A stretch of DNA of 64,000 nt from an uncultured Candidatus Saccharibacteria bacterium (GTDB lineage Bacteria > Patescibacteriota > Doudnabacteria > UBA920), in NCBI GenBank assembly GCA_964561085.1, contig CAZLNP010000002.1, positions 75,440-139,439 of the forward strand, written 5' to 3'. The notes beneath the pieces are model-generated. The model saw only the letters and a list, made by a program, of their open reading frames with translations, was not told the DNA's origin and searched no databases. This document shows, one piece after another, positions 3,728 to 45,351 of the stretch. Position 1 is the first letter of the stretch, and every line of letters starts with the position of its first letter. A program made the translations under genes and the position numbers.

Positions 3728-3733
3728 AAAACT

Positions 3734-5722
3734 ATGGAAAACTTTTCACAAAAAACTTCAATGATTTGGAATATCGCGGACATTCTTCGCGGTGGCTGGA
3801 AGCAACATGAATATCAAGATGTAATCTTGCCTTTTGTTGTTCTTAAACGTCTTGATTCGATTTTAGAACCAACTAAGACAAAAGTTCTTGAACAGCATAA
3901 CCAATGGAAAGGCAAGATTAAAGATGTCGAGCCGATTCTAAAAAAAGCTTCAGGATCAGAGTTTTTTAACGTGTCACCATATGATCTCCATAAATTAACT
4001 GAAGACCCAAATAACATTGCTAAAAACTTTGATCAGTACTTACAAGATTACAGTGAAAATATTCGCGATATCATCGAGAAGTTTGATTTTCATAAACAAC
4101 TAGAACGCCTTGAAGGTGGTAATTTGTTGTATTTAATTATTCAAGAATTAAATAAAGTAGATTTACACCCAGACAAAGTAGATAATCATCAAATGGGTTT
4201 AATTTTTGAAGAATTACTTCGAAAATTTTCGGAAATGTCCAATGAGACTGCGGGGGAGCACTATACTCCACGTGATGTAATTAAAATTATGGTGCAAATC
4301 TTGCTTTCACCAGATGCAAAAGAGCTAAATAAACCACATGTAATCAAAAAGATTTATGACCCCGCAGCCGGGACCGGCGGAATGTTAACAGTTGCCAAAG
4401 ACTACATTTTAGAGAACATTAACCCTAAAGCAGATATCTACTTGTACGGCCAAGAGTTAAACTCAGTTACTTATGCTATGGCAAAGTCAGACCTTCTAAT
4501 TAAAGGTGAAGATCCGAACTTGATTCGTGGTGGTGAAAAAGATCACTCTAAAGCAAGCACTCTTTCTAATGACCAATTTTTTGGTGAAGTATTCGACTAT
4601 GGACTTAGTAACCCACCTTATGGAGTAGATTGGAAAAAAGATAAAGATTTTGTAGAACGAGAGGCCACTCGAGGTTTCGCTAGTCGCTTTGGTGCAGGAA
4701 CTCCAAGAATCTCTGATGGGCAATTATTGTTCTTACAGCACTTAGTTTCTAAAATGAAACCTGTAAGCGAAGGTGGGACACGTTTGGCAATTGTTCACAA
4801 TGGCTCCCCATTATTTACCGGAGATGCTGGAAGTGGTGAAAGCGAAATTCGTCGTTGGCTTCTAGAAAAAGATTTATTGGAAACGATAGTAGCTTTACCA
4901 GACCAATTGTTTTACAACACAGGCATAAATACCTATTTGTGGTTTTTAAGTAATAAAAAGTCAGAGCAACGAGCTGGGAAGGTACAGCTAATTGATGGTC
5001 GTAATATGTTCATGAAAATGCGAAAAAGTTTAGGACATAAACGGCACGAAATTGACGATGAATCAAAAAAGAAAATTTTTGATCTGTACGATAAATTTGA
5101 AGAAAATGAATTCTCAAAAATATTCAAAACTACCGATTTCGCTTATAGACAGATTCAAATTGAACGTCCGTTGAGATTGAACTTCCAAGCATCTAAAGAG
5201 CGAATTGATCTAGTAAAAGAAGAAGCTGCTTTTCTAAAACTTAAACCTACTGAACAAGAAGAAATCATTACTATCTTAGAACAATTCCCAAACAAAGATC
5301 TATTTACTAACCGCGAAGAGTTTGTTAAAGTATTTGATCTTCAAACCAAGGAATTAAAACTTAAAGTTCCCGTAAAGAAAGCTATTTTAAACGCGCTTTC
5401 TGAACGTGATGAAAATGCAGATATTTGTTTAGATAGTAGTGATAAACCAGAAGCAGATAGTGAACTACGAGATTACGAAAATGTACCATGGGGAACAAAA
5501 GTAGAAGAATACTTTGAGAAAGAAGTTAAGCCCTATGTTGCAGATGCATGGATTAACGAAACTGTCCGAGATCACAAAGATAATGAGCTTGGTAAAGTTG
5601 GTTATGAGATTCCCTTTACACGGTATTTCTACAAATATGTTCCACTTCGTAGTTTAGAAGAAATTGAAGCTGATATAGAAACAGTGGAAAATGAATTATT
5701 AGATTTGTTAAAGCAACTATAA
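3734..5722 (+). CDS. hsdM: type I restriction-modification N6-adenine DNA methyltransferase subunit M
   Basis: HsdM N-terminal domain (NIADILRGG), SAM-binding motif I DPAAGTGGML, catalytic motif IV NPPYG. At 662 aa it has a C-terminal extension relative to typical HsdM. Confidence 0.9.
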   Translation: MENFSQKTSMIWNIADILRGGWKQHEYQDVILPFVVLKRLDSILEPTKTKVLEQHNQWKGKIKDVEPILKKASGSEFFNVSPYDLHKLTEDPNNIAKNFDQYLQDYSENIRDIIEKFDFHKQLERLEGGNLLYLIIQELNKVDLHPDKVDNHQMGLIFEELLRKFSEMSNETAGEHYTPRDVIKIMVQILLSPDAKELNKPHVIKKIYDPAAGTGGMLTVAKDYILENINPKADIYLYGQELNSVTYAMAKSDLLIKGEDPNLIRGGEKDHSKASTLSNDQFFGEVFDYGLSNPPYGVDWKKDKDFVEREATRGFASRFGAGTPRISDGQLLFLQHLVSKMKPVSEGGTRLAIVHNGSPLFTGDAGSGESEIRRWLLEKDLLETIVALPDQLFYNTGINTYLWFLSNKKSEQRAGKVQLIDGRNMFMKMRKSLGHKRHEIDDESKKKIFDLYDKFEENEFSKIFKTTDFAYRQIQIERPLRLNFQASKERIDLVKEEAAFLKLKPTEQEEIITILEQFPNKDLFTNREEFVKVFDLQTKELKLKVPVKKAILNALSERDENADICLDSSDKPEADSELRDYENVPWGTKVEEYFEKEVKPYVADAWINETVRDHKDNELGKVGYEIPFTRYFYKYVPLRSLEEIEADIETVENELLDLLKQL

Positions 5723-5723
5723 T

Positions 5724-6923
5724 ATGGCCCAAGATAATAATATAATTTGCCCTAACTGTGGAGCATCAATTTCAATTGATGATGCTTTGACACACCAAAT
5801 TGAAAACAAGCTCAAAAAAGAATACGAGGATAAAGAAAAGTCTTTAAGAGAGTCAATTGAGAAAGAATCTTCAAAGAAGCTAGAAGAAGATAAGGCTGAT
5901 ATGGAGATGAAAATAAAAGCGCAGATTCTGAAAGATGCTGAAGCAAGTAAGATAGCGGCTGATGAAAAAAATAAACTTCTTGAGGAACAACTTGCAGACA
6001 AAGATGCAAAACTAAAAGAAGCGCGTCAAAATGAAGTTGTTCTTATTAAAGAACAGCAAAAACTAAAAGACGACAAAGATGCTTTTGAGTTGGATAAGGA
6101 ACGCCAACTTGCTGAAGATAGAAAACAAATTGAAGAAAATGCTTCAAAAAAAGCCACAGATGCAAAACAATCCGAAATAGACCAACTTAATAAGAAGCTT
6201 TCTGATGCTACAAAAGCAAAAGACGAACTAGCTAGAAAACTAGAACAAGGATCTCAACAAACTCAAGGTGAAGTCCAAGAATTAGCTCTTGAGGAACTAC
6301 TTAAAAATGAGTTTATATTTGATGACATCTCACCTGTAGGCAAAGGTGTTAATGGCGCAGATGTTATTCAGACTGTTAAAACAAAGTCTGGTGTTGAGTG
6401 CGGAAAAATAATATGGGAATCTAAGAAAACTAAAACATGGACTGAGGGGTGGATACAAAAACTCAAAGATGATCAAAGACAAGTAAAAGCAGATCTTGCT
6501 GTCATTATAACGTCTGCAATGCCTCAAGGAACAAGCGGTATCACCCAGAAAGATGGTGTATGGATTTGTGATATCAAATTGGCTTTATCAATAGCAATTC
6601 TACTAAGACACTCACTGGAAACTGTTTCCAGAGAAAAGTCTATGTCTGTAGGGAAAAATGAAAAAGTTGAAATACTTTATGCGTACCTCACTGGTACAGA
6701 ATTTAAGCAAAGAATTGAAGTAATAGTAGAGACATTTTCTAGTATGAAAAAATCTCTTGATAAAGAGAAGCTTTACTTCACAAAAATTTGGGCAGAAAAA
6801 GAAAAGCAAATAGATCGAGTTATCCAAAATACTATAGGTATTTATGGTGATTTGAGCGGAGTTGTTCAATTACAAAAGATTGAGTCACTTGAACTACCTA
6901 GTAGAGAAGATAAAGAAGAATAA
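5724..6923 (+). CDS. DUF2130-like protein: N-terminal Zn-ribbon (CPNCG), long coiled coil, C-terminal putative nuclease-like domain
   Basis: N-terminus is ...ICPNCGASISIDD. About 200 aa follow of charged heptad-rich sequence. The C-terminal domain has a D...ExK-like arrangement (GADVIQTV...IIWESKK). Position between hsdM and hsdS. The family call is from memory. Confidence 0.5.
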   Translation: MAQDNNIICPNCGASISIDDALTHQIENKLKKEYEDKEKSLRESIEKESSKKLEEDKADMEMKIKAQILKDAEASKIAADEKNKLLEEQLADKDAKLKEARQNEVVLIKEQQKLKDDKDAFELDKERQLAEDRKQIEENASKKATDAKQSEIDQLNKKLSDATKAKDELARKLEQGSQQTQGEVQELALEELLKNEFIFDDISPVGKGVNGADVIQTVKTKSGVECGKIIWESKKTKTWTEGWIQKLKDDQRQVKADLAVIITSAMPQGTSGITQKDGVWICDIKLALSIAILLRHSLETVSREKSMSVGKNEKVEILYAYLTGTEFKQRIEVIVETFSSMKKSLDKEKLYFTKIWAEKEKQIDRVIQNTIGIYGDLSGVVQLQKIESLELPSREDKEE

Positions 6924-6924
6924 T

Positions 6925-8235
6925 ATGCAAACACTTAATCTTACAAAAAAATACGAAGTTTACCCTGAATACAAAGATTCAGGTGTTGAGTGGTTAGGGA
7001 TGATTCCAAAAGAATGGAGAGTGGGAAAAGTTAAAGAAGTTTTTAAACTTTTAAAAGAAAGATCCTTCAATAATTCTGAATCTGAAATATTATCGCTCAC
7101 ATTAAATGGTATAAAAACTAGAGATGTTTCAAATAATGAAGGACAAATCGCTGCGAGTTATGAGGGTTATAGAAAAATAATCAAGGGAGATATTGTATTA
7201 AACCCGATGGATCTTGTGAGGGGTTTTGTTGATTCTTCTAAGTATGAAGGCATTATTAGCCCTGCTTATGCTACATTAAGAAAAAAAGATAAAGAGATAA
7301 ATTCACAATATTATAATTATTTTTTTCAAAAACATTACTTTGAAGGCATATTTCACCCTTTTGGTAATGGTGTTTCAGTAGATCATCGTTGGACGCTAAA
7401 AGATGATACGTTAGTTAATTTCCCAGTTCTAACAATTCCATTTGAACAACAAACAAAAATTGCAAAATTCTTAGACCAGAAAACTATTTTGATTGATAAG
7501 ATTATTGAGAAAAAGAAAAAGCAAATTGAGTTAATAAAGGGGGAAAGGAGAGTAATAATAAATAATGCTATTACAAAAGGGCTGGGTAAAAGTGTAGAGA
7601 TGTTTGATAGCGGAGTTGAATGGATCGGAAAGATACCTAAAGGATGGAGTATCGAGAAATTAAAAAATAGAACAACTTTTCTTAATGGTTATTCATTTGA
7701 TAGTGGTGAATATGTAAATGATGGTTTACCAATAATAAGAATATCTGATGTAGGGCAAGAAGTTGATTTTACTAAGGTTAAAAGAGTTCCTTATATTTTG
7801 AGAGCAAAAATTAATAGATTTTTAGTTAAAAAAAATGATTTACTGATTGCTTTAACTGGAGGAACAATAGGTAAGACATCTATTTACGACAAACTTGACG
7901 AAGTCTATTTGAATCAGAGAGTTGGAATCATAAGACCAAACAATGAATTAGACTTAACCTTCTTAAAATTTCAGATTGCTTCAAATGTTTTCAAAAAAAA
8001 TATAGATTTACTTTGTATCGGAGGAGCACAACCTAATATAGGAAAAAATGAAATAGGGAATATTTTATTCCCATTTCCAAGCAAAGACGAACAAAAGGAA
8101 ATATCAAGATATCTTGAAGTGAAAAATAGAGTTTGTGATGAGGCTATAAGTAAGATAGAGTCTACAATAGAAAAATTAAATGAGTACAAAATTTCTCTTA
8201 TTTCCGATGTTATAACAGGAAAGGTAAAAGTATAA
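6925..8235 (+). CDS. hsdS: type I restriction-modification specificity subunit S (two target recognition domains, TRDs)
   Basis: Two TRDs separated by conserved coiled-coil repeats: LIDKIIEKKKKQIELIKGERR centrally and ESTIEKLNEYKISLISDVITGKV at the C-terminus. Very AT-rich. ATG 6925 lies 1 nt after the upstream stop; the ORF-track start 6862 overlaps the previous gene. Confidence 0.85.
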   Translation: MQTLNLTKKYEVYPEYKDSGVEWLGMIPKEWRVGKVKEVFKLLKERSFNNSESEILSLTLNGIKTRDVSNNEGQIAASYEGYRKIIKGDIVLNPMDLVRGFVDSSKYEGIISPAYATLRKKDKEINSQYYNYFFQKHYFEGIFHPFGNGVSVDHRWTLKDDTLVNFPVLTIPFEQQTKIAKFLDQKTILIDKIIEKKKKQIELIKGERRVIINNAITKGLGKSVEMFDSGVEWIGKIPKGWSIEKLKNRTTFLNGYSFDSGEYVNDGLPIIRISDVGQEVDFTKVKRVPYILRAKINRFLVKKNDLLIALTGGTIGKTSIYDKLDEVYLNQRVGIIRPNNELDLTFLKFQIASNVFKKNIDLLCIGGAQPNIGKNEIGNILFPFPSKDEQKEISRYLEVKNRVCDEAISKIESTIEKLNEYKISLISDVITGKVKV

Positions 8236-28052: not shown

Positions 28053-28172
28053 TTTCGCTAAAAGCCTCTAGTTGCGCCATCTTCAGAAAATCTTTAGAAT
28101 AAATATAGAAATAGCTTAAAAATCCTTGAAATAAAGGATTTTTTGAGTATTGGAAACCCAAGAAACCTAGAT

Positions 28173-29933
28173 ATGGCAAAAACTATTTATCTAAATTTGG
28201 AAGATGATGTAGCTAAGGTTATAGCTAAGCTTAAGCGTGAATCAGGTACGGACGTGGTTTTAGTGTTTCCAAAAAAGAGCTTCATTTTTTCTGATAGCAT
28301 CAATCTGCGACTTCTAAAGAAGCAGGTAGATATGATTAATAAGAAAGCCTTCATCCTCACTATGGATGAACGCGGCCAAAATTATGCACAAGAAGCTGGT
28401 TTTGAATTAAAGCGTATGCCGGCTAAAACTCGCTCTAATTCTTTTTCAGATATTCGTCCACGCACCACGCGCGTGCCTCGAACAGTGGCTGACGCTTCCG
28501 CCGCCGCTGCAACTGCAGCCGCTGCTACTTCGGCGTTAAAATCTAAAAAATCTTTAACCCCCGCTGAGTCTATATCGTCAGCACCAACACGTGTTCGAAA
28601 AATTGCGCGCCCAATTTCTAGTCAGCGAGTTGCACCAGTCGAACCTGACCCGATCCCACGCCGCGCTACTCGTACCAACCCTCCTGTTAGCGCATCCGCT
28701 AAGGCGCATAGCGAAACTCGATTCGTGGCGCCAGTTCGCGCTAGCGACAATGTATACATCCCAGCCGATTCTAAAGTCACTCAACCAAAACGACGTAAGT
28801 CGTATCGAGCTTATGTTGTTGGGTTCATCGCGTTAGCATTAATAATTGCGTTATTGCTACTTTTAGTAGTACTCCCAAGCGCAAACGTAGTTGTGTACGC
28901 TAAATCTCAAACAGTTGCTCGAGACATTGATGTTATGGCCGATGTTCAAACTAAAGTTGCCGATAGCTCTAAGTTAGCAATTCCTGCAGTAGCAGTTGAT
29001 GAAAATCAAACCATAGTAGATACATTTCAAACAAACGGGAAAAAAGAGTTAGGTAGTAAAGCAGAGGGGCGCGTGGCTTTGTATAATTTAACTGGTAGCC
29101 CAATGGCGTTGAAAGCGGGAACTACCACACTAACTGTTGGCAGTAAAACTTACACTTTTAAAGAAGATCAACCTAATGTAAAAGCATTAACTAATGCATC
29201 AAACGATGCTAATGCAACTGTTGCAGACATAGTTGCAACCGATGGAGGGGAGTCATTTAATGTCCCTGCCGGTACTCGTGTGGAAATTACTAACCAAGCA
29301 TTCGGTAGTCAACCACAAAGGCTATATGCTAAAACTGTCACGCAAGTTATTGGTGGAAACTCACGCTTTGTATCTGCCATCTCTAAAGAAGATTTAGATG
29401 GAGCGCAAAAAGAACTAACTAAGAAAGTTGTTGATGGCATCAATGCTAACTTAGCTGGCAGCAATGTAAAACTAGTTGAAGGCGCATACAATGTGAGCGT
29501 AACTTCTTTTACACCAGATAAAGCAGAAGGTACAGAAGCACAAAGTTTCTCCGCTGAATTAAGAGTCGTAGTAACTGGTTTGGCCTTCGATGAAAATGGT
29601 TTAAAAAATATGATCCGCCAAAGATTGTTAATGTCTTTGGGAGCAGGGAAAAATCTCCAAGAGCTGGAAAAGGATACTGTCATTTACAAAATTAAGAATC
29701 TAGATGCTCAGAATGGCATTATGCAATTAGCTTTACATTACGAGTCTAACGCTAAGCCTAATATCCAGCCGAGTGATTTAAAGAATAAGCTAACTGGTAA
29801 GAGCAAGCAGGAAGCATCAGATTTAATTCTTTCAGATACAGATATTGATAGAGTAGAGATTTCAGTTCAGCCAGCGTGGCAATCTAGTTTACCCAGGTTT
29901 GGCAGTAAGATTAACTTGGAAATTCGCGAATAG
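28173..29933 (+). CDS. hypothetical bitopic membrane protein: cytoplasmic N-domain, Ala/Pro-rich linker, single TM, large extracytoplasmic C-domain
   Basis: Start at ATG 28173 (MAKTIYLNLEDD). Low-complexity stretch AAAATAAAATSALKSKK. TM FIALALIIALLLLLVVL near residue 230. No family recognised. Confidence 0.45.
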   Translation: MAKTIYLNLEDDVAKVIAKLKRESGTDVVLVFPKKSFIFSDSINLRLLKKQVDMINKKAFILTMDERGQNYAQEAGFELKRMPAKTRSNSFSDIRPRTTRVPRTVADASAAAATAAAATSALKSKKSLTPAESISSAPTRVRKIARPISSQRVAPVEPDPIPRRATRTNPPVSASAKAHSETRFVAPVRASDNVYIPADSKVTQPKRRKSYRAYVVGFIALALIIALLLLLVVLPSANVVVYAKSQTVARDIDVMADVQTKVADSSKLAIPAVAVDENQTIVDTFQTNGKKELGSKAEGRVALYNLTGSPMALKAGTTTLTVGSKTYTFKEDQPNVKALTNASNDANATVADIVATDGGESFNVPAGTRVEITNQAFGSQPQRLYAKTVTQVIGGNSRFVSAISKEDLDGAQKELTKKVVDGINANLAGSNVKLVEGAYNVSVTSFTPDKAEGTEAQSFSAELRVVVTGLAFDENGLKNMIRQRLLMSLGAGKNLQELEKDTVIYKIKNLDAQNGIMQLALHYESNAKPNIQPSDLKNKLTGKSKQEASDLILSDTDIDRVEISVQPAWQSSLPRFGSKINLEIRE

Positions 29934-32702: not shown

Positions 32703-33683
32703 ATGGAACAAATTCCATTACCAAATCAAGCCCGCGTCGAAAACGTAGGCGGCAATACTTACGAAGTTACTCTAGAACCTCTTTACCCAGGTTTTGGTGT
32801 TACTATCGGAAATGCAATGCGTCGTGTGTTGTTATCTTCTATGCCAGGTGCAGCTGTGACTGCGGTCAAGATCAAGTATGTTGACCACGAGTTCTCAACT
32901 GTTCCAAACGTAAAAGAAGATGTAATTCAAATTATTTTGAATTTAAAGCAACTCCGATTGCGTAGCTTCTCTCGCGAACCAGTTCGTCTACAGCTACAAG
33001 CTAAGGGTGAAGGTGTGGTTACTGCAGAAATGATCGAAGGTACAGACCAAGTTGAAGTGGTAAACAAAGACTTGTACATTTGTACCCTAGATAACAAAAA
33101 CGCAGACTTCGACATGGAGATCATCGTTGAACAAGGTCGCGGTTATGTTCCTGTAGAATCTCGTGAAGGTAAAGAAAAGCTAGAAGCTGGAATGCTTTCT
33201 ATCGATGCTATCTACACTCCAGTTCGTTCAGTTTTCTTTGATGTATCAAACGTTCGTGTTGGTCAAATTACTAACTTCGACAAATTGGTACTTCGCATGG
33301 AAACAGATGGAACTATCACTGGTCAAGAAGCTATCGATATTGCATCTCACATTCTAGTGGATCACTTCTCAATGTTATTTAACAACGAAGGTGCTGCTCG
33401 TATTGAAATGATGGCAACTCCTGCTGTTGAAGAATCTGTAATGGAGAATGATGGATCTGAAGCAATTGAACCTACTTTCGAAGCTACTGCTCAAGTTGAA
33501 AACGGCACTAGCCTAGATGAATTAAACCTTTCTAATCGTGCTAAGAATGCTTTGACTAAAGCCGGTATCGGTTCAGTAGAAGCACTTCAAGGCTTAACCA
33601 ATGATGAAATCACTAATACTGCTGGTTTAGGTGAAAAGACTATCACTGAAATTCTAGAAGTATTGGGACGTAATCAAAGCTAA
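32703..33683 (+). CDS. rpoA: DNA-directed RNA polymerase alpha subunit (N-terminal domain + alpha-C-terminal domain, CTD)
   Basis: N-terminal assembly domain (EPLYPGFGVTIGNAMRRVLLSSMPG) and C-terminal HhH domain (LDELNLSNRAKNALTKAGIGSVEAL). Confidence 0.95.
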   Translation: MEQIPLPNQARVENVGGNTYEVTLEPLYPGFGVTIGNAMRRVLLSSMPGAAVTAVKIKYVDHEFSTVPNVKEDVIQIILNLKQLRLRSFSREPVRLQLQAKGEGVVTAEMIEGTDQVEVVNKDLYICTLDNKNADFDMEIIVEQGRGYVPVESREGKEKLEAGMLSIDAIYTPVRSVFFDVSNVRVGQITNFDKLVLRMETDGTITGQEAIDIASHILVDHFSMLFNNEGAARIEMMATPAVEESVMENDGSEAIEPTFEATAQVENGTSLDELNLSNRAKNALTKAGIGSVEALQGLTNDEITNTAGLGEKTITEILEVLGRNQS

Positions 33684-33709
33684 TATTGTAAACGTAATTA
33701 ATTAATCGC

Positions 33710-34054
33710 ATGAGACACTTAAACAAGAAAAAATTCGGTAAGGGAATGGACCATCGCAGAAAGCTGTTACGTACTTTAGCGTCTTCCGCGATTCTTTATG
33801 AACGTATTGAAACCTCTTACTCTAACGCTCGCGCTGTAAAGCCTTACATCGAACGAATCATTACTCGTGCTAAAGTTGATTCTTTGCACAACCGTCGTCA
33901 GATTCTTTCTAAGCTAACTAAGAATGCAGCAGCAAAGGCTCTTGAAGTATATGGACCAAAGTACGCAAGCCGTAATGGTGGATATGTACGTATGATTAAA
34001 TTAAATGATCCTAAAGCCGGTAAGTCTAAAGCCGTATTGGAGTTTGTAGAATAA
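33710..34054 (+). CDS. rplQ: 50S ribosomal protein L17
   Basis: MRHLNKKKFGKGMDHRRKLLRTLASS...RNGGYVRMIKL. Confidence 0.9.
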   Translation: MRHLNKKKFGKGMDHRRKLLRTLASSAILYERIETSYSNARAVKPYIERIITRAKVDSLHNRRQILSKLTKNAAAKALEVYGPKYASRNGGYVRMIKLNDPKAGKSKAVLEFVE

Positions 34055-34055
34055 T

Positions 34056-34499
34056 ATGTTAAAGAATCAGAAAATTACATTACCGAAAACAGTTACTCGT
34101 GTATGGCATGAAATCGATGCTTCTACTTTGCCAATGGGACGTATTGCAACTCAGGTTGCAAACCTTCTTCGTGGTAAGCACAAGCGTGATTTTACTCCAC
34201 ATATGGATATGGGTGATTTCGTTGTAGTGACTAATGTTGATAAGATGAAGTTCACTGGTCGTAAGATTGAACAAAAGAAGTACTATCATCACTCTGGCTA
34301 CTTAGGCGGTTTGAAGACAAAGACTTTGAAAGATGAAATCGTTCGTAGCCCAGAAACAGTTCTTCGTAAAGCAGTATGGTCAATGATCGATGACATCAAA
34401 TTCCGTAAGACTATTCTATCTCGCATGAAGATGGTTAAAGGAACTTCCCACACTTATAACACCACTAAGAAAGAAGCTAAGAAAGTAATCGCTAAATAA
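34056..34499 (+). CDS. rplM: 50S ribosomal protein L13
   Basis: ...TRVWHEIDASTLPMGRIATQVANLLRGKHKRDFTPHMDMGDFVVVTN... Starts 2 nt after rplQ. Confidence 0.9.
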   Translation: MLKNQKITLPKTVTRVWHEIDASTLPMGRIATQVANLLRGKHKRDFTPHMDMGDFVVVTNVDKMKFTGRKIEQKKYYHHSGYLGGLKTKTLKDEIVRSPETVLRKAVWSMIDDIKFRKTILSRMKMVKGTSHTYNTTKKEAKKVIAK

Positions 34500-34500
34500 T

Positions 34501-35076
34501 ATGGCTACAGAAACTACAACTACAAAGAAGCCAGCAGCTGCTAAGAAGGTTGCTGCAGCAAAGAAGCCAGCAGCTAAGAAAGCTGTTGCTGAAGAAGTGG
34601 CTAAGCCAGTTCGTAAGACTGCTCCAGTTGCTCCAGTAGAAACTGCTGTTGAACCTGCGATCACTTTTGAAAAGCCAACTCTACCTAAGGGCCGTTACGT
34701 ATATGCTACTGGCCGTCGTAAGACTGCAGTTGCTAACGTTCGCTTGTTTGCCGGATCTGAAAAGAGCCAAGTTAACAAGAAAGAACTAGAAGCTTTCTTT
34801 GATACAGAAAACTTACGTACTACTGCTATCCGTCCATTGGCTCTAGTTGGATTACTAGGTGATTTCTACTTCTTGGCTAGCGTTAATGGTGGCGGTACAA
34901 ATGCTCAAACCGAAGCTATTCGTCATGGAATCGCTCAAGCATTGGCTTCTATGAATGAAGACATGAGAAACGTTCTAAAGAAAAATGGTTTTCTAACTCG
35001 TGATGATCGTAAGAAAGAACGTAAGAAGCCAGGTCTACGTGGTGCGCGTCGTGCTCCTCAATGGGCTAAGCGTTAA
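34501..35076 (+). CDS. rpsI: 30S ribosomal protein S9 with an approximately 60-aa Ala/Lys-rich (histone-H1-like) N-terminal extension
   Basis: Core YVYATGRRKTAVANVRLFAGS...GGGTNAQTEAIRHGIAQAL...KKPGLRGARRAPQWAKR. Extension: TTTTKKPAAAKKVAAAKKPAAKKAVAEEVAKPVRK. Confidence 0.9.
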   Translation: MATETTTTKKPAAAKKVAAAKKPAAKKAVAEEVAKPVRKTAPVAPVETAVEPAITFEKPTLPKGRYVYATGRRKTAVANVRLFAGSEKSQVNKKELEAFFDTENLRTTAIRPLALVGLLGDFYFLASVNGGGTNAQTEAIRHGIAQALASMNEDMRNVLKKNGFLTRDDRKKERKKPGLRGARRAPQWAKR

Positions 35077-35182: not shown

Positions 35183-35385
35183 ATCTGTTTACTCCTCGAA
35201 AGGGGAGTTTTTTGTTTCTTTTATAGGGAAATATTTTTGAAGATACATTACAACATCCCGCTTAAATAAAGTCAATATTGACAATTATTGCTCAGAGTGC
35301 CATATTACTAGCATAGATCAATCAATTTTTAATAAAGTCCTCATAAAGAAGGGCTATTATTGTAATAATTAAACAGACTAAACAG

Positions 35386-38300
35386 ATGAGCAAAAGCGAA
35401 CCTACAGCGGCACAAGCCCGCTATCGCATGAGATTTAGTACTCATGTCGTACCAGATTCCGCAAGAAAGACTGTATCTAAATTCAACCGTATGTGGTTGG
35501 GTAAAGCTATGGCTTTTGTTGCGGTTTTTTCATTAATTCTTAGCAGTGTTGCCCCGGTAGATGCATTAGCCGCTGTTGCACCAACTGTGACCGTTTGTCA
35601 TTTGGAAGGAAATGGGACATATCAGTCTCTAACTTTCAATTCAAATGCTTTGCAAGGTCATCTTGGCCACGGTGATGTTTATCCAGTTCCAGCTTTGGGC
35701 TGTGACTCTTTAAACCAAGTACCTCAAGCAATCCCAACAGAAACAATAATTGTTAATCAGAACACATCAGCTGGTGAAAACCTTCCTGGATGGATGTTTA
35801 ACCGTGATGCTTCTACAGATACTCCATATGTTTTTAACACTGGGAATGCAAGCATTGGTTCTGGTAGCTTAAACATTTTGCCAATTGGTGCGACAGCTGC
35901 AGACAAAATGGTTGCTGAAAACTTCATCAACTCACCAATTTCTACCATCACTGGAATTTACTACGACTTTAAGATTGGTGCCGGTGGATTAGCTACTCAA
36001 GAAGAGCAGTTCTACATGAATGTATATGCAAACTTCGGTGTGTCTCCAGATAATAAGTTCTATGACTGTCGATACAATGTAGTTCCTACTATCGGTTCTA
36101 CTGGTAGCTATACAACTGTTTCTTTTGACCCTAACTTAACTTACCCTGTAACTCAGAGCGGATCTTCTCCGTTTGCTTGTCCTGCATCTCCTGCGGCTAT
36201 GGAAGGCATGAGCGCTGGATCCAACATTCGTATGTTCTCCCTTAACGTAGGGGATACTTCTGCATCTGACCTTGGTTTAGATGGATATTTAGATAAAGTA
36301 GTAGTGTCTAAAACTACACTTATTACAACATATGACTTTGAACCAGCTCCTCCACGAATTGCTTCTAAAGTAGCGATTCAAAAAGTTTGGCAAAACTCTG
36401 CTGGTCAGCCAATCCCTGCACCAGATAACAAAGATGATATTACAATCACTGTAACTACTGAAAATCAGAATCAAGATGTTTGTACTTACGATGCACAAGG
36501 TGTTTTGACTTGTAGTGGCATTGTAAACAGCTACACAGACGAAACAATCAAAGTAGAAGAAACTGGTTTGCCGGTTGGTTGGGAAGTGGATCCTGCAACT
36601 GTTGGTAATGCTGTTAATCCAGTTTGTCCTGTGCCAGACCCTCAAGGACAGCGCTCAATTGATTGTACTCATACAGTTATTAACAAATTAAAAACTGCAT
36701 CTCCTTGTGGACTTGAATTAGTAACTAATGGTGGTTTTGAACTTCCTGAAGTAACTGACGGTAACAAGTGGCAGGTTTTTGACTCAGGCGCTGCTGGCTT
36801 AGGCTGGTCTGTTGACTGGGTTCGTCCAAGCGGAGCTCCAGCAAAAGCGAAAGCTGAATTGCACGAAGGCGTGAACTCTTGGAACTCTCACGGCGGTAAT
36901 CAGCATACAGAAATTGATTCTGACTGGGCTGGTCCTTCTAGTGGTCCAGACGGTGAAGATGCATCTGCGACACTTTTCCAAGACCTTATTACTAAAAATG
37001 GTGGCGTATACACAGTAAGTCTGTGGACATCACCTCGTCCAGGAACTGGAACTTCTGAAAATAAGACTGAAGTGAAAATGGGCTCAACTGTACTAGATAC
37101 TATCATCGAAGATGGCTCTGCTAACTCACAAACAGTTTGGACAAAACATACATACACATTCACAGCTACTTCTGGTGTAACTCGTTTGAGTTTGACCGAT
37201 CTAGGAACTGGAAATTCTCTAGGTGCTTTCTTAGACGACGTTAGCGTAAAAGAAGAATGTCTATCAGATGTAACAATCTGTAAATTAGATCAAAACCAAA
37301 ATCCACTTTCTGGATGGGATGTATTCTTGAAAGGTCCAATCGCAGATACAGTAGTGGTTTCTGGAACTTCTAATACTCCAGCTTTGTCTGATCCTCTTGC
37401 TGCTGGTGACTACGTTCTAGAAGCTTCTGGAACATACACATACCGCGCAGGCAGCGCAGGCGACATTAGTGACGCTGCATATTCTGAACGTCAGCCTTCC
37501 GATGCTGGCATTGACTCTAGCTTCTACTCTGGGGCACATTTGCCATGGGTACGAAATCTTGATCTAGGTGCTGGTTACGGTGGCTACTTAGGCATTCGTG
37601 TTGACGGTGCTAACTTCAACTGGGGTACTGAATATGAATCTAGCCATGAGTATGCTGCTTTCAAGAATGTTGCTGCTTTGGCTCCGCTATCTTTCTATAT
37701 TGAAGATGGAAATAGCTATGCAGATAACGCAGGAAGCTTAACTGTTGATATTTATCCTATTGTTAAAGGCACTACTGGCCAAAATGGTTGTGTGACTTTA
37801 CAAGATGTTGATTACGGTACTTACGATCTTGATGAACTAATGAAAGATGGTTGGGTTAATGTATCTGGTAAGGGCACTAATGCAGTTGTCGATATGCCAA
37901 CTGAAAACTTTACTCTAGTTAACCGATGTACTAACAACTGTGAATCTACTGTAAAAATTTGTAAGGTAAACGATCAAGGTACTCCGTTGCCAGGTTGGAA
38001 TGTTTACTTAAAAGGAGATAACTTAGAAACACTTGACGTTGACTCCGCTGACGTTGCAGGTGAAACTACCACCGATGTGCTTGAAGCAGGACAAGAATAT
38101 GTTGTTGAAATAGAAGGGGAATGGCAGAACCGTGGATTTGAAACTGTTGATGCTAGCTTTACTACTCCAGATGGTTGGACTACTGTCCTAGCTGCACCAC
38201 AAGGTGGTTATTCAGATGACCTACTAGAAACTCAAATTAACCAAGCATTCGTAAACTGGGGTCCTTACTCTGGTGAACCAGATCACAAGTACAGCTTGGT

Positions 38301-39903
38301 AATGACTGGTACTGGAACTACTGCTAATTTCCGTGTTTACGATGCGGCTAGCGGCAATCCTGCAGACATGAGCCCAGCTTGGTATGGTGATAATGTTGGC
38401 GAGCTAACTGTTAAAATTTATCCAATCTACCAGGGCACAACTGGTGCAGATGGCTGTGTGACTATTGATGGTGTTCCATTTGGGACTTACACTCTTGGCG
38501 AAACAATGCAAGAAGGTTGGGAAAACGAACGTGGTAATGGTTCTACTGTAATTGTTAACGAACCATACGAACCTGGTACAAACTTGAATGAAAATCCATT
38601 CGTACTAGTTAACACTTGTACTGGTGAAGATTGTCAAGATATTGGACCATGTACTGTTGCTCCTATTAATGTAATTAGCGGTGCTGCAACTTTCTTCTCT
38701 GGTTTGAAAGAGGGTGGTCCAGCTCCAATTGCTTTGAATAACGCTAATAACTATCCTTCTGGCACTACTGGTGTTGCACAACCTGCAGCTCCTACTGGGT
38801 ACGCAGGAGCATGGGATGGATCTATCAATGATCCTGACATTGCTGGTTCTGGCGCAGTATACATAAGCAACGATTCAACTCAGCCTACTCTTGCAGGCGG
38901 ACCTGGATACGATGGTTCAGTTGATTCTTGGAGATTATTCAAACACACCTTTACTATTCCAGCTGGCGCTACAAACATCAGCCTTCCAGTATTGCACTTC
39001 GCTGCAGACAATGAAGTTAGTGTGTTCCTAGACGAAGCGTTCATTGGTTTCAATGATAGCTTCTCTACTGTAGTTGATACTGCTCCGTTAGCGTTAACTC
39101 CTGGTACTCATACTTTGGAATTCGCTGTAAAGAACTATGCGTTTGATCAAACAAACAACCCAACTGGTGTAATCTACAAGCTAGATACTATTACTTACGA
39201 ATGTCCAGATGGTGGCGATGATGAACGCTACTCTGTTAATGGTTTAGTTTACACAGATTCAGATCAAGATGGCACTCAAGATGGTGGTGAATCTGCATTA
39301 CCTGGAATGACAATTAAGCTGCTAGAAGCAACTCCAGATGGTGAAGATGCTGGAACTGACCTAGATGAAGCAGAAGTAGCTACTGATGTTTCTGATGCAA
39401 ATGGTCTATACTCATTTGATCTAATTCCTGCTGGTTGCTACATCGTTCGTGAAATTCCTGATGGATACACACAAACTGAACCTGCTGTAGCGGGACACGA
39501 ATATTACATTAATGTTGGTGGCGCAGACTGTGTCTTCAACAATGCTGATGAGAAGAAGTCTCTTGTTGGTTCACTCTTCATCAAGACAGCTCAAGCTGCA
39601 ACTGTTGATACAGTATTCGTAGCTTACGTAGGCCAACAATTAAAGTTTGGTAACTACACTACAAATGGCGGCGGCGGTTCTGGTGGGTCCGGTGGATCTG
39701 GTTCATCTTCTGATGACGATGAAACTCCACTTGTTCCAACTGTTTTGGGTGACTCTACTAACACTCCATCAGATCCAGTTGGCCAAGTATTAGGCGCTAC
39801 TACATTGCCTCGTACAGGAAGCCCAACATGGGCATTGCTAATGATCGTTCTATTAGCAGCTCCAATGTTATACTTCCGTAAACTTGCTGTGAAGAAAGCC
39901 TAG
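35386..39903 (+). CDS. large cell-surface protein with tandem Cna-B/SdrD-B-like domains and a C-terminal LPxTG sorting signal
   Basis: C-terminus LPRTGS + hydrophobic WALLMIVLLAAPMLYF + RKLAVKKA is a classical sortase substrate. Internal ~220-aa tandem repeats occur (TICKLDQNQNPLSGWDVFLKG... / VKICKVNDQGTPLPGWNVYLKG...; SLTVDIYPIVKGTTGQNGCVTLQDV... / ELTVKIYPIYQGTTGADGCVTIDGV...). There is an SdrD-B-like block (NGLVYTDSDQDGTQDGGESALPGMTIKLL...GLYSFDLIPAGCYIV) and a GGGSGGSGGSGSSSDDD linker. The true start may be an internal Met (35428 or 35491) preceding the signal peptide. Confidence 0.7.
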   Translation: MSKSEPTAAQARYRMRFSTHVVPDSARKTVSKFNRMWLGKAMAFVAVFSLILSSVAPVDALAAVAPTVTVCHLEGNGTYQSLTFNSNALQGHLGHGDVYPVPALGCDSLNQVPQAIPTETIIVNQNTSAGENLPGWMFNRDASTDTPYVFNTGNASIGSGSLNILPIGATAADKMVAENFINSPISTITGIYYDFKIGAGGLATQEEQFYMNVYANFGVSPDNKFYDCRYNVVPTIGSTGSYTTVSFDPNLTYPVTQSGSSPFACPASPAAMEGMSAGSNIRMFSLNVGDTSASDLGLDGYLDKVVVSKTTLITTYDFEPAPPRIASKVAIQKVWQNSAGQPIPAPDNKDDITITVTTENQNQDVCTYDAQGVLTCSGIVNSYTDETIKVEETGLPVGWEVDPATVGNAVNPVCPVPDPQGQRSIDCTHTVINKLKTASPCGLELVTNGGFELPEVTDGNKWQVFDSGAAGLGWSVDWVRPSGAPAKAKAELHEGVNSWNSHGGNQHTEIDSDWAGPSSGPDGEDASATLFQDLITKNGGVYTVSLWTSPRPGTGTSENKTEVKMGSTVLDTIIEDGSANSQTVWTKHTYTFTATSGVTRLSLTDLGTGNSLGAFLDDVSVKEECLSDVTICKLDQNQNPLSGWDVFLKGPIADTVVVSGTSNTPALSDPLAAGDYVLEASGTYTYRAGSAGDISDAAYSERQPSDAGIDSSFYSGAHLPWVRNLDLGAGYGGYLGIRVDGANFNWGTEYESSHEYAAFKNVAALAPLSFYIEDGNSYADNAGSLTVDIYPIVKGTTGQNGCVTLQDVDYGTYDLDELMKDGWVNVSGKGTNAVVDMPTENFTLVNRCTNNCESTVKICKVNDQGTPLPGWNVYLKGDNLETLDVDSADVAGETTTDVLEAGQEYVVEIEGEWQNRGFETVDASFTTPDGWTTVLAAPQGGYSDDLLETQINQAFVNWGPYSGEPDHKYSLVMTGTGTTANFRVYDAASGNPADMSPAWYGDNVGELTVKIYPIYQGTTGADGCVTIDGVPFGTYTLGETMQEGWENERGNGSTVIVNEPYEPGTNLNENPFVLVNTCTGEDCQDIGPCTVAPINVISGAATFFSGLKEGGPAPIALNNANNYPSGTTGVAQPAAPTGYAGAWDGSINDPDIAGSGAVYISNDSTQPTLAGGPGYDGSVDSWRLFKHTFTIPAGATNISLPVLHFAADNEVSVFLDEAFIGFNDSFSTVVDTAPLALTPGTHTLEFAVKNYAFDQTNNPTGVIYKLDTITYECPDGGDDERYSVNGLVYTDSDQDGTQDGGESALPGMTIKLLEATPDGEDAGTDLDEAEVATDVSDANGLYSFDLIPAGCYIVREIPDGYTQTEPAVAGHEYYINVGGADCVFNNADEKKSLVGSLFIKTAQAATVDTVFVAYVGQQLKFGNYTTNGGGGSGGSGGSGSSSDDDETPLVPTVLGDSTNTPSDPVGQVLGATTLPRTGSPTWALLMIVLLAAPMLYFRKLAVKKA

Positions 39904-39981
39904 GCTAACTTTTAGCAAGCTGTAACTGCTATAATAAAACTACCTTCGAAAGAGGGTAGTTTTTATTTTCCCACCTTAACC

Positions 39982-40590
39982 ATGGTCAAATTAACTATGA
40001 TAAAAAAGATCGCTTTAGTAATAGTTTTAGTCATTCTTGGATTCGGTTTATTGAATGCTCCTTTTTTATGGCAGCAAATTAAATTTACTTTTAGTAGTCC
40101 TGACTCTTCTGTAGAACAAGCTCCTGTAGGGGATGACCTGGGGTCTGAAGCCAAGGTTTCCCCGAATACTATTAATATTCCAAGTTTGGGTATTTCAGCG
40201 CCAATTGTAGAATCTGTAGAATCTAATGAAGATTCTTATCAAGAAGCGCTTCAGAATGGCGTTGTGCACTTCCCAGGCACCGCTGTGGCGGGGGAATTAG
40301 GTAATGCCTACTACTTTGGCCACTCGTCAGATTTTGCTTTTGCCAAGGGAAATTACAAGACTGTATTTGCTCTATTGCCACGAATTGAAATGGGCGCTGA
40401 GATTCGCATAAGTAATCCTGATGGACAAGAATTTAAATACACTGTAATCGATAAGAAAGTGGTGAGTAATAATGATGTTAGCGTGTTAGAGCAAGGGGAG
40501 CGTAAGGAAAAACTGCTTAGCTTGCAAACATCGTATCCGGTTGGAACTGCTTTGCAAAGATATGTTGTTGTTGCGAAGTTGGTTGAGTAA
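39982..40590 (+). CDS. sortase-fold protein with Ser in place of the catalytic Cys (TLxTC -> SLQTS)
   Basis: N-terminal TM anchor. Layout is sortase-like: conserved His region YYFGHSSDF, then ...GAEIRIS...QEFKYTVIDKKVV...KLLSLQTSYPVGTALQRYVVVAKLVE. The nucleophile position is encoded by TCG (Ser); the conserved Arg is retained. Confidence 0.6.
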   Translation: MVKLTMIKKIALVIVLVILGFGLLNAPFLWQQIKFTFSSPDSSVEQAPVGDDLGSEAKVSPNTINIPSLGISAPIVESVESNEDSYQEALQNGVVHFPGTAVAGELGNAYYFGHSSDFAFAKGNYKTVFALLPRIEMGAEIRISNPDGQEFKYTVIDKKVVSNNDVSVLEQGERKEKLLSLQTSYPVGTALQRYVVVAKLVE

Positions 40591-40689: not shown

Positions 40690-41091
40690 TTATACACTGA
40701 GCATATTTTTTAACCTCTGAATGACGTGACTGAATTCTTTTTCTTTTAAAACATAAGATTTTCTGTAAAGTCTTTTAGTACTCAGTAATTTTAATTGTGC
40801 TAATACGGCTGCGACTTGATTGCTGTTGTTATCTACGTAATTGTAATAAAAGTCTAAACTCTTTTGCATAGATGTTAATGGTACAACCCATACCATGTTC
40901 CTATTAAATTTTTTTATAATTAGAACAGGTCTAAGAAAATCACTGCCTTTCCCATTTTGTTCATAGCCAATATTCTTACCGACTGAAGCTATCCAAACAT
41001 CCCTGATTTTCGGAAAGGACCTTGTCGGCTTACCGAAATGCATTTCTTGTTTTTTCTTATTCCAAATTTCGAAACTTTCTAATTCATTCAT
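40690..41091 (-). CDS. MazF/PemK-like (type II toxin fold) protein, with no cognate antitoxin ORF detected
   Basis: ...IRDVWIASVGKNIGYEQNGKGSDFLRPVLIIKKFNRNMVWVVPLTS... parallels the MazF/PemK pattern (GxxIWxVDfxPxxGxEQxGxRPxLVlS...PiTs). Confidence 0.5.
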   Translation of the reverse strand: MNELESFEIWNKKKQEMHFGKPTRSFPKIRDVWIASVGKNIGYEQNGKGSDFLRPVLIIKKFNRNMVWVVPLTSMQKSLDFYYNYVDNNSNQVAAVLAQLKLLSTKRLYRKSYVLKEKEFSHVIQRLKNMLSV

Positions 41092-41635: not shown

Positions 41636-41657
41636 TCCTGAATTAGAAGATAAAATA

Positions 41658-44207: not shown

Positions 44208-45041
44208 ATGTTTAATTACTATTACGAGCAATTCAAGCAAAATAAGCCATTCAAATTGATAGTTTTGGTTTTCGTCGCCCTAACAATTTGGTGGGTTAGT
44301 ATTTTTGTAAGAGGCTTGACTGAGGGTATTGAGAATGATGCCTTCACGATTATCTATCCAGTACTAGCTCTGATGGGTGGCATTATGGGGTGGATTTTTT
44401 CACGAAAGTGGGGCGGATTCAAAAGCACTTTAGGAAAATCAATAGGAATGTTCTCCCTTGGTTTATTGGCTCAATTTTTAGGACAAGTATTATATAATTA
44501 CTATATTTTTGTTCTAGGAATAGATGAGCCATATCCATCTATTGGTGATGTGAGCTATTTCGCTAGTGTTATATTCTATATATTCGGTGTCTGGTACTTA
44601 GCGAAAGTCAGCGGAGTCAAGAGTTCTGTTAAATCGTTTAATGGAAAGTTAAAAGCAGTAGCAATCCCTGTAATTATTCTGTTATCCTCTTATCTGCTAT
44701 TGCTTAAGGACTATGAGTTAGACTTCTCCGATAAGACTTTGTTATTTTTAGATTTCGGATTCCCTATAGGACAAGCGATTTTTGTATCAATAGCATTTAT
44801 GGCGCTCTTTATATCTAAGGATATTTTGGGTGGGATGATGAGGAAGCCAATAATGTTGTTAATCATCGCATTAATTTTCCAATATGTAGCAGACTTTGCA
44901 TTCTCGTATCAGTTTAGTGTAAATCCCGAGTCTACATATGTTGGTGACTTCTTAGACTATTTATATTGCGCCTCATATTTCTTTATGGCTATCTCACTCT
45001 TCTCCATAGGCAATATGTTTTATAAGGTTCAGGAATCATAA
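44208..45041 (+). CDS. hypothetical polytopic membrane protein
   Basis: About 7-8 TM helices. No motif. Confidence 0.45.
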   Translation: MFNYYYEQFKQNKPFKLIVLVFVALTIWWVSIFVRGLTEGIENDAFTIIYPVLALMGGIMGWIFSRKWGGFKSTLGKSIGMFSLGLLAQFLGQVLYNYYIFVLGIDEPYPSIGDVSYFASVIFYIFGVWYLAKVSGVKSSVKSFNGKLKAVAIPVIILLSSYLLLLKDYELDFSDKTLLFLDFGFPIGQAIFVSIAFMALFISKDILGGMMRKPIMLLIIALIFQYVADFAFSYQFSVNPESTYVGDFLDYLYCASYFFMAISLFSIGNMFYKVQES

Positions 45042-45045
45042 ATAT

Positions 45046-45351
45046 ATGACAGAAACACTTCAACAAGAACTATCTATCTTTGATCAAATCTCCATCCGTA
45101 TCATTAAGGAACAGGAGCTTGTTATTGGTCCGGTGGCTTGGGAAGAAGCAAAAAAGGTTTCTGGTTTCCATGTGGTTGATAAAGATAAAGGCGAAGTCAC
45201 CTTCGACGGTGACCCTAAAGAAGTACTAAACAGATTAGTAGCTCAGTACTCTCGTTTGTTTGGTCAGGTATCAAAAGAAGTTTGTAAAGAAGCAGTTCAA
45301 GATTTGATTGCGGAATTACCACAGACCGATGTCCCAGATAGCTTAAAATAA
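45046..45351 (+). CDS. hypothetical small protein
   Basis: 101 aa, directly upstream of the GAF-histidine kinase gene. Confidence 0.4.
   Translation: MTETLQQELSIFDQISIRIIKEQELVIGPVAWEEAKKVSGFHVVDKDKGEVTFDGDPKEVLNRLVAQYSRLFGQVSKEVCKEAVQDLIAELPQTDVPDSLK

Follow-up and report, generated by a model that had tools for sequence, protein, structure and literature searches.

The reviews found in our literature search define sortases as cysteine transpeptidases, and the classical enzymes act through a thioester intermediate. For bacteria of the Candidate Phyla Radiation (CPR), sortases and LPXTG proteins have been mentioned generically, with no serine variant (PMC3812714, PMC6744442, PMC7143001), and a sortase family was reported in more than half of CPR genomes (PMC6744442). 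For SrtA, a C184S form is mentioned solely as the 'cys-less' background of spin-labelling work (PMC5578623). Here we describe a sortase gene from an uncultured Candidatus Saccharibacteria bacterium (assembly GCA_964561085.1) whose 202-aa product has a serine, Ser184, in place of the catalytic cysteine and scores below every class cutoff. It follows the gene of a 1505-aa surface protein ending in an LPRTG sorting signal, within a stretch of 64,000 nucleotides (nt) of contig CAZLNP010000002.1 that was analysed as a whole and is called the window below. The initial annotation of this locus had left the choice between a catalytically dead pseudo-sortase and a serine-nucleophile variant, both regarded as uncharacterised. 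In line with this, no description of a serine, atypical or pseudo-sortase of this kind was found in the full-text literature, whose coverage leaves out most subscription journals, and databases name proteins of the serine clade just 'sortase' (QQS22569.1; JGI names). We consider it probable that the gene encodes a membrane-anchored sortase of a CPR clade which uses Ser184 as nucleophile and processes LPRTG proteins via an ester acyl-enzyme.

Both open reading frames (ORFs) were found where the initial annotation had placed them, and they make up the sortase-substrate pair it had described. The 202-aa protein matched the Pfam model Sortase (PF04203) over model positions 1-125 of 125 (E 1.2e-23, 83.6 bits at a cutoff of 26.6) and remained slightly under the cutoff of TIGR01076 sortase_fam (38.1 vs 39.35). 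None of the NCBIfam cutoffs for classes A-F was reached, the scores being 55 vs 165 for class D, 52.7 vs 140 for SrtD, 36.9 vs 160 for class C, 34.4 vs 160 for class E and 33.9 vs 166 for class F. The protein is composed of a hydrophobic N-terminal membrane helix (about aa 3-24), preceded by Lys residues, and a sortase beta-barrel (about aa 60-202), a topology that would place the catalytic domain outside the cell. Close relatives are 197 aa long and start at Met6. In an AlphaFold2 model derived from 51 family members (pLDDT 89.7, pTM 0.82), His114 is located right after strand 107-113, Ser184 ends strand 177-184 and Arg193 begins strand 192-200; this modelled placement corresponds to the canonical beta4/beta7/beta8 arrangement. 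Foldseek comparison of the model with the PDB returned sortases of classes C, D, E and A for all top 50 matches (best E 2.5e-12), the top matches having E about 1e-11 to 1e-12 and, where the alignment was compact, root-mean-square deviations of 2.2-2.7 A over 142-145 columns.

Sequence and profile alignments both matched Ser184 to the catalytic Cys of 4d70 (class D SrtD, TIVTC), 8t28 (A. oris SrtC2, LLTLVTCTPLG) and 2ln7 (LTLTTCYP). His114 aligned to the His of 4d70 (AGHRN), and Arg193 to the Arg of 4d70 (DRYIV), 8t28 and 2ln7. The serine is encoded by TCG, in the context agc ttg caa aca TCG tat ccg (SLQTSYP), two substitutions away from TGY, exactly as the annotation had read the position of the TLxTC cysteine. 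Not one cysteine occurs in the 202-aa protein, which excludes a displaced nucleophile. This confirms that the window gene encodes a full-length domain of the sortase superfamily, PF04203 / MEROPS C60, with Ser at the position of the catalytic Cys.

His, Ser and Arg were present at these positions in all 120 closest homologues (47-98% identity, from many independent assemblies), which share the almost invariant signature GN.Y.FGHSSD ... LQTS[YW]P.GTA..R. A HMMER search of 1.84 billion cluster representatives yielded 4331 sortase relatives at E<=1e-3 and 106 at E<=1e-30. For comparison by alignment column we used 151 sequences, the query and the 150 best global cluster representatives. The nucleophile column contained Ser in 116 and Cys in 32 of these, with 3 sequences truncated there, and the alignment also verified the conservation of the other two catalytic residues, His being invariant (151/151) and Arg present in 148/148 aligned representatives. 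In 95 of the 116 Ser-type representatives the catalytic domain is free of Cys. A pattern scan of 185,579 species genomes detected a relative in 175 genomes, and a hand tally assigned the 80 loci kept to Saccharibacteria (35), Doudnabacteria (17) and 'Patescibacteria group' (10), further to Kazan, Yanofskybacteria and Paceibacter; a few of the loci belong to bins labelled Gammaproteobacteria or Binatia with CPR-like gene content. Complete or nearly complete genomes with the Ser form include CP064996.1, CP011216.1, OY968788.1, CAZSDS010000001.1 and JGI Ga0672917_0000001. These distributions point to Ser as a family-wide trait of a large CPR clade and not a peculiarity of a single gene.

The codons used for the serine in 86 genes were TCT (32), TCG (21), TCC (17), TCA (14), AGT (1) and AGC (1). 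A switch between TCN and AGY serine codons needs two substitutions and passes through Thr or Cys. The use of all four TCN and both AGY codons implies long-standing synonymous turnover and not a recent lesion. The two AGY codons were found at loci L038 (sortase ORF 6902-7558) and L053 (6326-7525); related loci and proteins are referred to here by such L and P numbers. Moreover, the ratio of nonsynonymous to synonymous substitution rates (dN/dS) was 0.06 at a dS of 0.52 for the pair L011/L013 and 0.13 for L030/L047; it was 0.05-0.07 for two nearly saturated pairs, and 0.17 for the window versus L004, the latter from 8 differences only. The Ser-sortase gene is thus under strong purifying selection. 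Tandem paralogues occur at L041 (6740-7420 and 7455-8060) and L067 (6962-7612 and 8036-8980), and both copies are of the Ser type in either case. At L067, either copy has an LPRTG ORF of its own upstream, the one before the second copy being small (112 aa); this second sortase also carries a long, Lys-rich extension at its N-terminus.

The serine might in principle be due to an error of sequencing or assembly, to decay of a pseudogene, or to misalignment that hides a displaced Cys, but nothing in the data speaks for this explanation, and we give it practically no weight. TCG lies two substitutions from a Cys codon, Ser was found in 120/120 homologues from independent assemblies, six Ser codons are in use across the 86 genes, the ORF is intact and under purifying selection, and the protein is free of Cys.

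Column-by-column comparison of the 116 Ser with the 32 Cys representatives revealed a set of residues common to both forms, namely Gly104, Gly107, Asn108, Gly113, His114, Ser115, Ser116, Thr183, Pro186, Gly188, Thr189 and Arg193. A small number of other positions, located next to the nucleophile, change together with it. Gln182 is present in 99% of the Ser forms, whereas the Cys forms carry Met/Ile/Val; Tyr185 is present in 88%, the remainder being mostly Trp, vs Thr/Trp/Val in the Cys forms; and Asp117 in 95% vs Asn/Tyr/Asp/Gly. Pro133 and Ala190 switch likewise. This pattern suggests that the active site has been remodelled in a coordinated way rather than abandoned. As Gln182 precedes Ser184 by two residues on the same strand, strand geometry predicts that both side chains face the same side. 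A role of Asp117 as the determinant for the Arg of LPRTG was considered and found unsupported: it is retained in five loci with an LPVTG substrate and hence is not simply a partner of that Arg. A plausible role is that Asp117 orients or activates His114 for a hydroxyl nucleophile.

These conserved columns bear directly on the first of the two possibilities left by the initial annotation. A dead pseudo-sortase would bind LPRTG via the retained groove, His and Arg, and serve as a receptor, chaperone or membrane retention factor, cleavage and anchoring being performed by another enzyme or by none. The textbook nucleophile is missing, and there is a pseudo-enzyme precedent in sortase-pilus systems, the signal-peptidase-like SipA of S. 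pyogenes. However, only the nucleophile was replaced, and by the sole residue still able to act as one; at a position kept for structure alone one would expect drift to Ala, Gly or Thr, while Ser is 100% conserved. His and Arg are invariant as well, and the new, clade-specific polar residues Gln182, Asp117 and Tyr185 flank the site. The low dN/dS values (0.06-0.13) and the retention of Ser in duplicates also argue against a dead enzyme. The combination that marks a pseudo-enzyme, loss of a catalytic residue with relaxed constraint on the active site, was not found in the Ser clade. A Cys-type sortase that would do the work may be encoded elsewhere in the genome; none was detected in the 64-kb window, nor around relatives, where flanking sequence of about 1 Mb was covered. 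No second canonical sortase was found within +/-7 kb in 83 related loci, the sole extra copies being the Ser-type tandem duplicates, and none of 38 larger contigs with Cys-type sisters coincides with a listed Ser-type contig, which is a weak indication. We regard a dead pseudo-sortase as unlikely. The almost invariant signature, the purifying selection and the pairing with LPRTG proteins favour the serine-nucleophile branch over the dead-enzyme branch.

The Cys-bearing members of the top 150 were the most distant ones, at about 36-40% identity, and also originate from CPR bacteria. These 'GHSS' sortases resemble the window clade in the GNxFxxGHSS motif, the LTLxT-x-P-x-GT...R frame, the N-terminal anchor and the compact CPR genome context, but differ in having Cys (148/148), Met/Ile/Val at position -2 and mostly Asn/Tyr/Gly at His+3, where the window clade has Ser, Gln and Asp. 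A profile search seeded with the Cys group added 116 further proteins, all with Cys; position -2 was Met/Ile in 112 of them, and Asp at His+3 occurred in only 5. The sources name these sisters as sortases of Berkelbacteria, CPR2 and CPR3 ('class E sortase', 'class D sortase', 'sortase family protein'). In a neighbour-joining tree calculated with the catalytic tetrapeptide masked and rooted on the Cys group, all 115 Ser sequences formed one clade that also included one long-branch Cys sequence (P0225), and the other 31 Cys sequences were placed outside. This topology is consistent with a single Cys-to-Ser transition, for which P0246, reading VTSYP at the active site, is a candidate intermediate. 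One Cys sister, P0217, is encoded beside ftsW and, like the window protein, directly downstream of a large protein, in this case of 1454 aa and ending in ...ILPKTG plus a short hydrophobic tail. By implication, the ancestors of the Ser clade were CPR sortases that already had LPxTG proteins as partners.

The 1505-aa protein encoded upstream of the window sortase ends in ...TVLGDSTNTPSDPVGQVLGATT-LPRTG-SPTWALLMIVLLAAPMLYF-RKLAVKKA, a complete tripartite cell-wall sorting signal that follows a Gly/Ser-rich linker. On the proposed reading, the catalytic domain (aa about 58-202) would act on the peptide stretch VLGATTLPRTGSP. The description of this protein as built from Cna-B/SdrD-B-like repeats was overstated: Pfam detected one SdrD_B/SpaA domain (aa 1286-1367) and a DUF642/choice-of-anchor-C region (aa 445-622), and two partial SpaA-like stretches with large insertions (about aa 787-818 and 1009-1040) were seen only by Pfam on sub-segments and by eye. 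The remainder of the protein had no Pfam hit, and self-BLAST at E < 1e-3 detected no internal repeats. Large orthologous LPRTG proteins occupy the same position in L001, L002 and L004.

The N-terminal extension of the 1505-aa protein has the motif YRMRFSTHVVPD (aa 13-25) and is followed by a signal-peptide-like hydrophobic segment. Related extension motifs (YRMRFSTHVVPD, YFRTHAVPD, GFKTHAVP) were noticed in L023, L068, L003 (two genes), L079, L031 and L007. A narrow pattern matched 3 of 53 complete N-termini; on visual reading, about 8 ORFs in 7 loci were recognised, so the motif is a feature of a subfamily and not universal. It is reminiscent of the YSIRK-type motifs in signal peptides of LPXTG proteins from Gram-positive bacteria.

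Among the 62 LPxTG tails encoded beside Ser-sortases (L001-L083), the pentapeptide was LPRTG in 52, and conservation extended beyond it. The commonest residues at positions -7 to -4 were V-L-G-A (34, 29, 37 and 29 tails), Thr was the commonest at -2 (39/62), Glu or Thr occupied -1 in 52/62, and Pro was found at +2 in 35/62. A second VLG[DE][ST] copy was present further upstream, after a Gly/Ser-rich linker, in 38 of the tails. The sorting signal is thus longer than the pentapeptide. Its layout can be written as linker, [QR]VLG[DE]ST, short Pro-rich spacer, QVLGA[ST]T[ET] and LPRTG, often with Pro two residues later.

To be counted in a census of 81 related loci with upstream sequence, a substrate ORF had to encode LPxTG, a hydrophobic segment and a basic tail. 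Such an ORF ended at most 400 nt upstream on the same strand in 60 loci. The remaining 21 comprised five loci with LPxTG within 3.5 kb, one fusion, seven with a different but equally telling context and eight with nothing. This coupling supports what is probably a genuine enzyme-substrate link, although a conserved pairing with LPRTG would equally be expected of a dedicated, non-catalytic binding partner. In three single ORFs (P0129, P0131 and P0136; Table 1), surface domains (DUF11/CLIPPER) run into ...E-LPRTG and a first hydrophobic segment; a basic loop (RRLKK, KRR or VRKLK) connects this segment to a second one, and the Ser-sortase domain follows. The fusion proteins are divergent. Each belongs to a 50%-identity cluster of its own and to a different assembly, which implies that the fused state has been retained and did not arise through faulty assembly. 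In P0129 and P0136 an in-frame junction Met would permit separate initiation, and P0131 has no Met there. The predicted membrane hairpin would put LPRTG and the catalytic domain both outside the cell. Such fusions represent Rosetta-stone-type evidence that the Ser-sortase would act on the LPRTG signal, and they are potential self-processing modules; they make most sense if the enzyme part processes LPRTG in cis, and so fit less well with a dead enzyme.

Seven loci (L011, L013, L015, L041, L050, L057 and L074), including that of the complete Kazan genome CP011216.1, have the order murD-ftsW-murG-[Ser-sortase]-murC, with the sortase at about 7001-7560 in most of them. No adjacent LPxTG gene was found at these seven loci, and they may represent a 'housekeeping' subtype. 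Their position between murG and murC puts the Ser-sortase gene beside genes that make lipid II. Lipid II is the acceptor of canonical sortases.

This gene order has to be weighed against a further explanation, that the protein is an active serine peptidase which only hydrolyses its substrate and thereby releases or sheds the surface protein or removes its membrane anchor, with no transfer to peptidoglycan. An ester acyl-enzyme is in general less reactive towards amines than a thioester, so water could be the main acceptor, and the fusions would then serve as self-cleaving release modules. Yet the sorting signal keeps the full tripartite layout of anchored proteins, seven loci have the gene next to lipid II genes, and penicillin-binding proteins (PBPs) illustrate that peptidoglycan amines resolve Ser esters efficiently. 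Hydrolysis alone therefore appears improbable to us, even more so than the loss of activity discussed above.

For the serine transpeptidase that we favour, the following sequence of events can be proposed. The 1505-aa protein would be exported and retained in the membrane by its hydrophobic C-terminal segment and basic tail, and the Ser-sortase would recognise the extended VLGATT-LPRTG signal. Ser184 would attack the Thr-Gly bond, with His114 as general base, possibly oriented by Asp117, and with the transition state stabilised by Arg193 and possibly Gln182. The resulting ester acyl-enzyme would be resolved by an amine, most likely that of lipid II or of a peptidoglycan stem peptide, which would leave the protein attached to the cell wall.

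Several points weigh against this scheme. A plain Cys-to-Ser swap usually cripples cysteine peptidases, and an active enzyme would therefore have to rely on the co-varying residues. The invariance of His, Arg and Ser could also reflect substrate binding in a non-catalytic receptor, and a canonical Cys sortase elsewhere in these genomes may do the actual anchoring. Furthermore, finding Ser in 86 of 86 genes is not an independent result, because the genome scan used Ser-containing peptide patterns, and the neighbour-joining tree is crude, with short internal branches and without support values. We lean, with hardly more than even confidence, towards a broader proposal: that large CPR lineages (Saccharibacteria, Doudnabacteria, Kazan and others) anchor surface proteins by a natural Ser-nucleophile sortase, the first non-Cys type in the superfamily; that it arose essentially once, through coordinated remodelling (Cys to Ser, Met/Ile to Gln at -2, Asp at His+3, Tyr at +1); that it recognises VLGxxT-LPRTG; and that some lineages carry it in self-processing fusions.

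The ORF pair is co-directional and lies in a compact, CPR-type setting (Table 1). On its 5' side are rpoA, rplQ, rplM and rpsI, named via Pfam labels on the syntenic genes of L001, and on its 3' side a PemK-like gene (Pfam), then an HU gene and a response regulator gene, both named via L001 labels. The 64-kb window contained no other sortase-like ORF and no other LPxTG tail, and scans for tRNA and Rfam families gave no match in it. The nearest genome in the species collection is a metagenome-assembled genome labelled Candidatus Saccharibacteria (L004; 97% amino-acid identity). A 787-kb JGI contig, CP064996.1 and GCA_034680565.1 share with the window a gene order in which the large SpaA/SdrD_B protein is followed by Ser-sortase, HU and response regulator.

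The match to a sigma-70-like promoter upstream of the substrate gene is weak evidence, since it is a consensus match only and the region has fewer such matches than shuffled sequence. The spacer between the substrate and sortase genes was conserved across relatives. Its median length was 80 nt, and in 52 of 55 related loci it contained a stable hairpin (z < -2; median z -4.4 vs mononucleotide shuffles), nearly always with a U-run; loci with an equivalent spacer include L001, L002, L004, L006 and L012. The -10-like element before the hairpin reads TGATATAAT in L002 and L006 and TGATACAAT in L001, and a conserved extended -10-like TGnTATAAT stands directly ahead of the spacer hairpin in Saccharibacteria-like loci, where it would presumably function as a -10 box. 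As a terminator or attenuator, the hairpin may adjust how much substrate is expressed relative to enzyme; it may instead, or in addition, form the 5' stem-loop of a sortase transcript of its own.

Table 1. Coordinates of the surface-protein and Ser-sortase genes, their motifs and surrounding elements, and of the fusion ORFs; positions refer to the window unless a related locus is named.
Feature	Position	Strand	Size	Remarks
Surface-protein ORF	35386-39903	+	1505 aa	predicted sortase substrate
N-terminal extension motif	35422-35460			aa 13-25 of the surface protein
Extended C-terminal sorting signal	39739-39900	+		TVLGDST...GQVLGATT-LPRTG-SP, 19-residue hydrophobic segment, RKLAVKKA
LPRTG codons	39805-39819
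Ser-type sortase ORF	39982-40590	+	202 aa
H114-S115-S116-D117 (GHSSD) motif	40321-40332	+		His114 (40321-40323), equivalent of the catalytic His
Q182-T183-S184-Y185-P186	40525-40539	+		Ser184 in place of the TLxTC cysteine, end of beta7
Ser184 codon	40531-40533			TCG
Arg193	40558-40560	+		equivalent of the catalytic Arg, start of beta8
rpoA, rplQ, rplM, rpsI	32703-35076			5' neighbours
Terminator-like hairpin	35191-35208			closes the rpsI operon, 5' of the promoter match
Sigma-70-like promoter match	35278-35306	+		TTGACA-17-CATATT, with TG ahead of the -10; about 80 nt 5' of the substrate gene
Extended -10-like element TGCTATAAT	39927-39935	+		immediately 5' of the intergenic hairpin; read from sequence
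Intrinsic-terminator-like hairpin	39936-39970	+		12-bp stem, GAAA loop, then T-run; between the substrate and sortase genes
PemK/MazF-like toxin ORF	40690-41091	-		between the sortase and HU genes
Fusion P0129	L088 4001-5554		517 aa	420-kb Doudnabacteria contig
Fusion P0131	L087 3746-5767		673 aa
Fusion P0136	L089 3429-6188		919 aa

Some further features of the neighbourhood were recorded. The PemK/MazF-like toxin ORF (Pfam E 3.3e-9) has no adjoining antitoxin-sized ORF (>=60 aa). It is not found at this position in L001-L003; L004 has it, with only 64% identity as against 96% for the flanking DNA, which gives it the look of a cassette that evolves fast or has been exchanged. L004 also has about 4.6 kb (about 3195-7807) between the HU and response-regulator genes without a counterpart in the window (about 41639-41657), a strain-level insertion or deletion. 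Three ORFs, 28143-29933 (596 aa), 44208-45041 (277 aa) and 45046-45351 (101 aa), had no Pfam match at E<=1e-4; the position of the latter two is conserved in L001, where the neighbours are unannotated too.

If the proposed activity is real, the sortase family has a second catalytic type, and the Ser clade is a natural experiment on the retuning of an active site after a change from Cys to Ser. Thiol-directed sortase inhibitors and probes should then fail on these organisms, and protein engineering could gain from the enzyme an LPRTG-specific ligase scaffold that is free of cysteine and insensitive to oxidation. The system would further represent a display route for the giant surface proteins of CPR/Saccharibacteria epibionts, which are likely mediators of host attachment.

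Among the closest known systems are sortases of classes D, C, E and A with solved structures (4d70, C. perfringens SrtD; 8t28 and 2xwg, Actinomyces oris SrtC; 4g1j, GBS SrtC1; 5go5, SrtE), with which the window protein shares the beta-barrel, the order His-nucleophile-Arg and an LPxTG-type substrate. It differs from them in its nucleophile, and its sequence shows neither a recognisable lid of the class C kind nor a membrane segment at the C-terminus. PBPs, the D,D-transpeptidases, use a serine nucleophile and form an ester acyl-enzyme that is resolved by a peptidoglycan amine. They provide a mechanistic analogy only, as their fold and active-site motifs are unrelated and no C-terminal sorting signal is involved. 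Pseudo-enzymes of the SipA/LepA type are, like the window protein, homologues of a processing enzyme that lack a canonical catalytic residue and are encoded beside sortase substrates. SipA reportedly lacks both members of its catalytic dyad, whereas the Ser-sortase shows the Cys-to-Ser change only, the remaining site being invariant. Finally, the rhombosortase/GlyGly-CTERM system resembles the one proposed here in pairing a serine enzyme with a tripartite C-terminal sorting signal, but rhombosortase, an intramembrane protease of the rhomboid type, is unrelated in fold, and its signal is a different one (PMC3237569).

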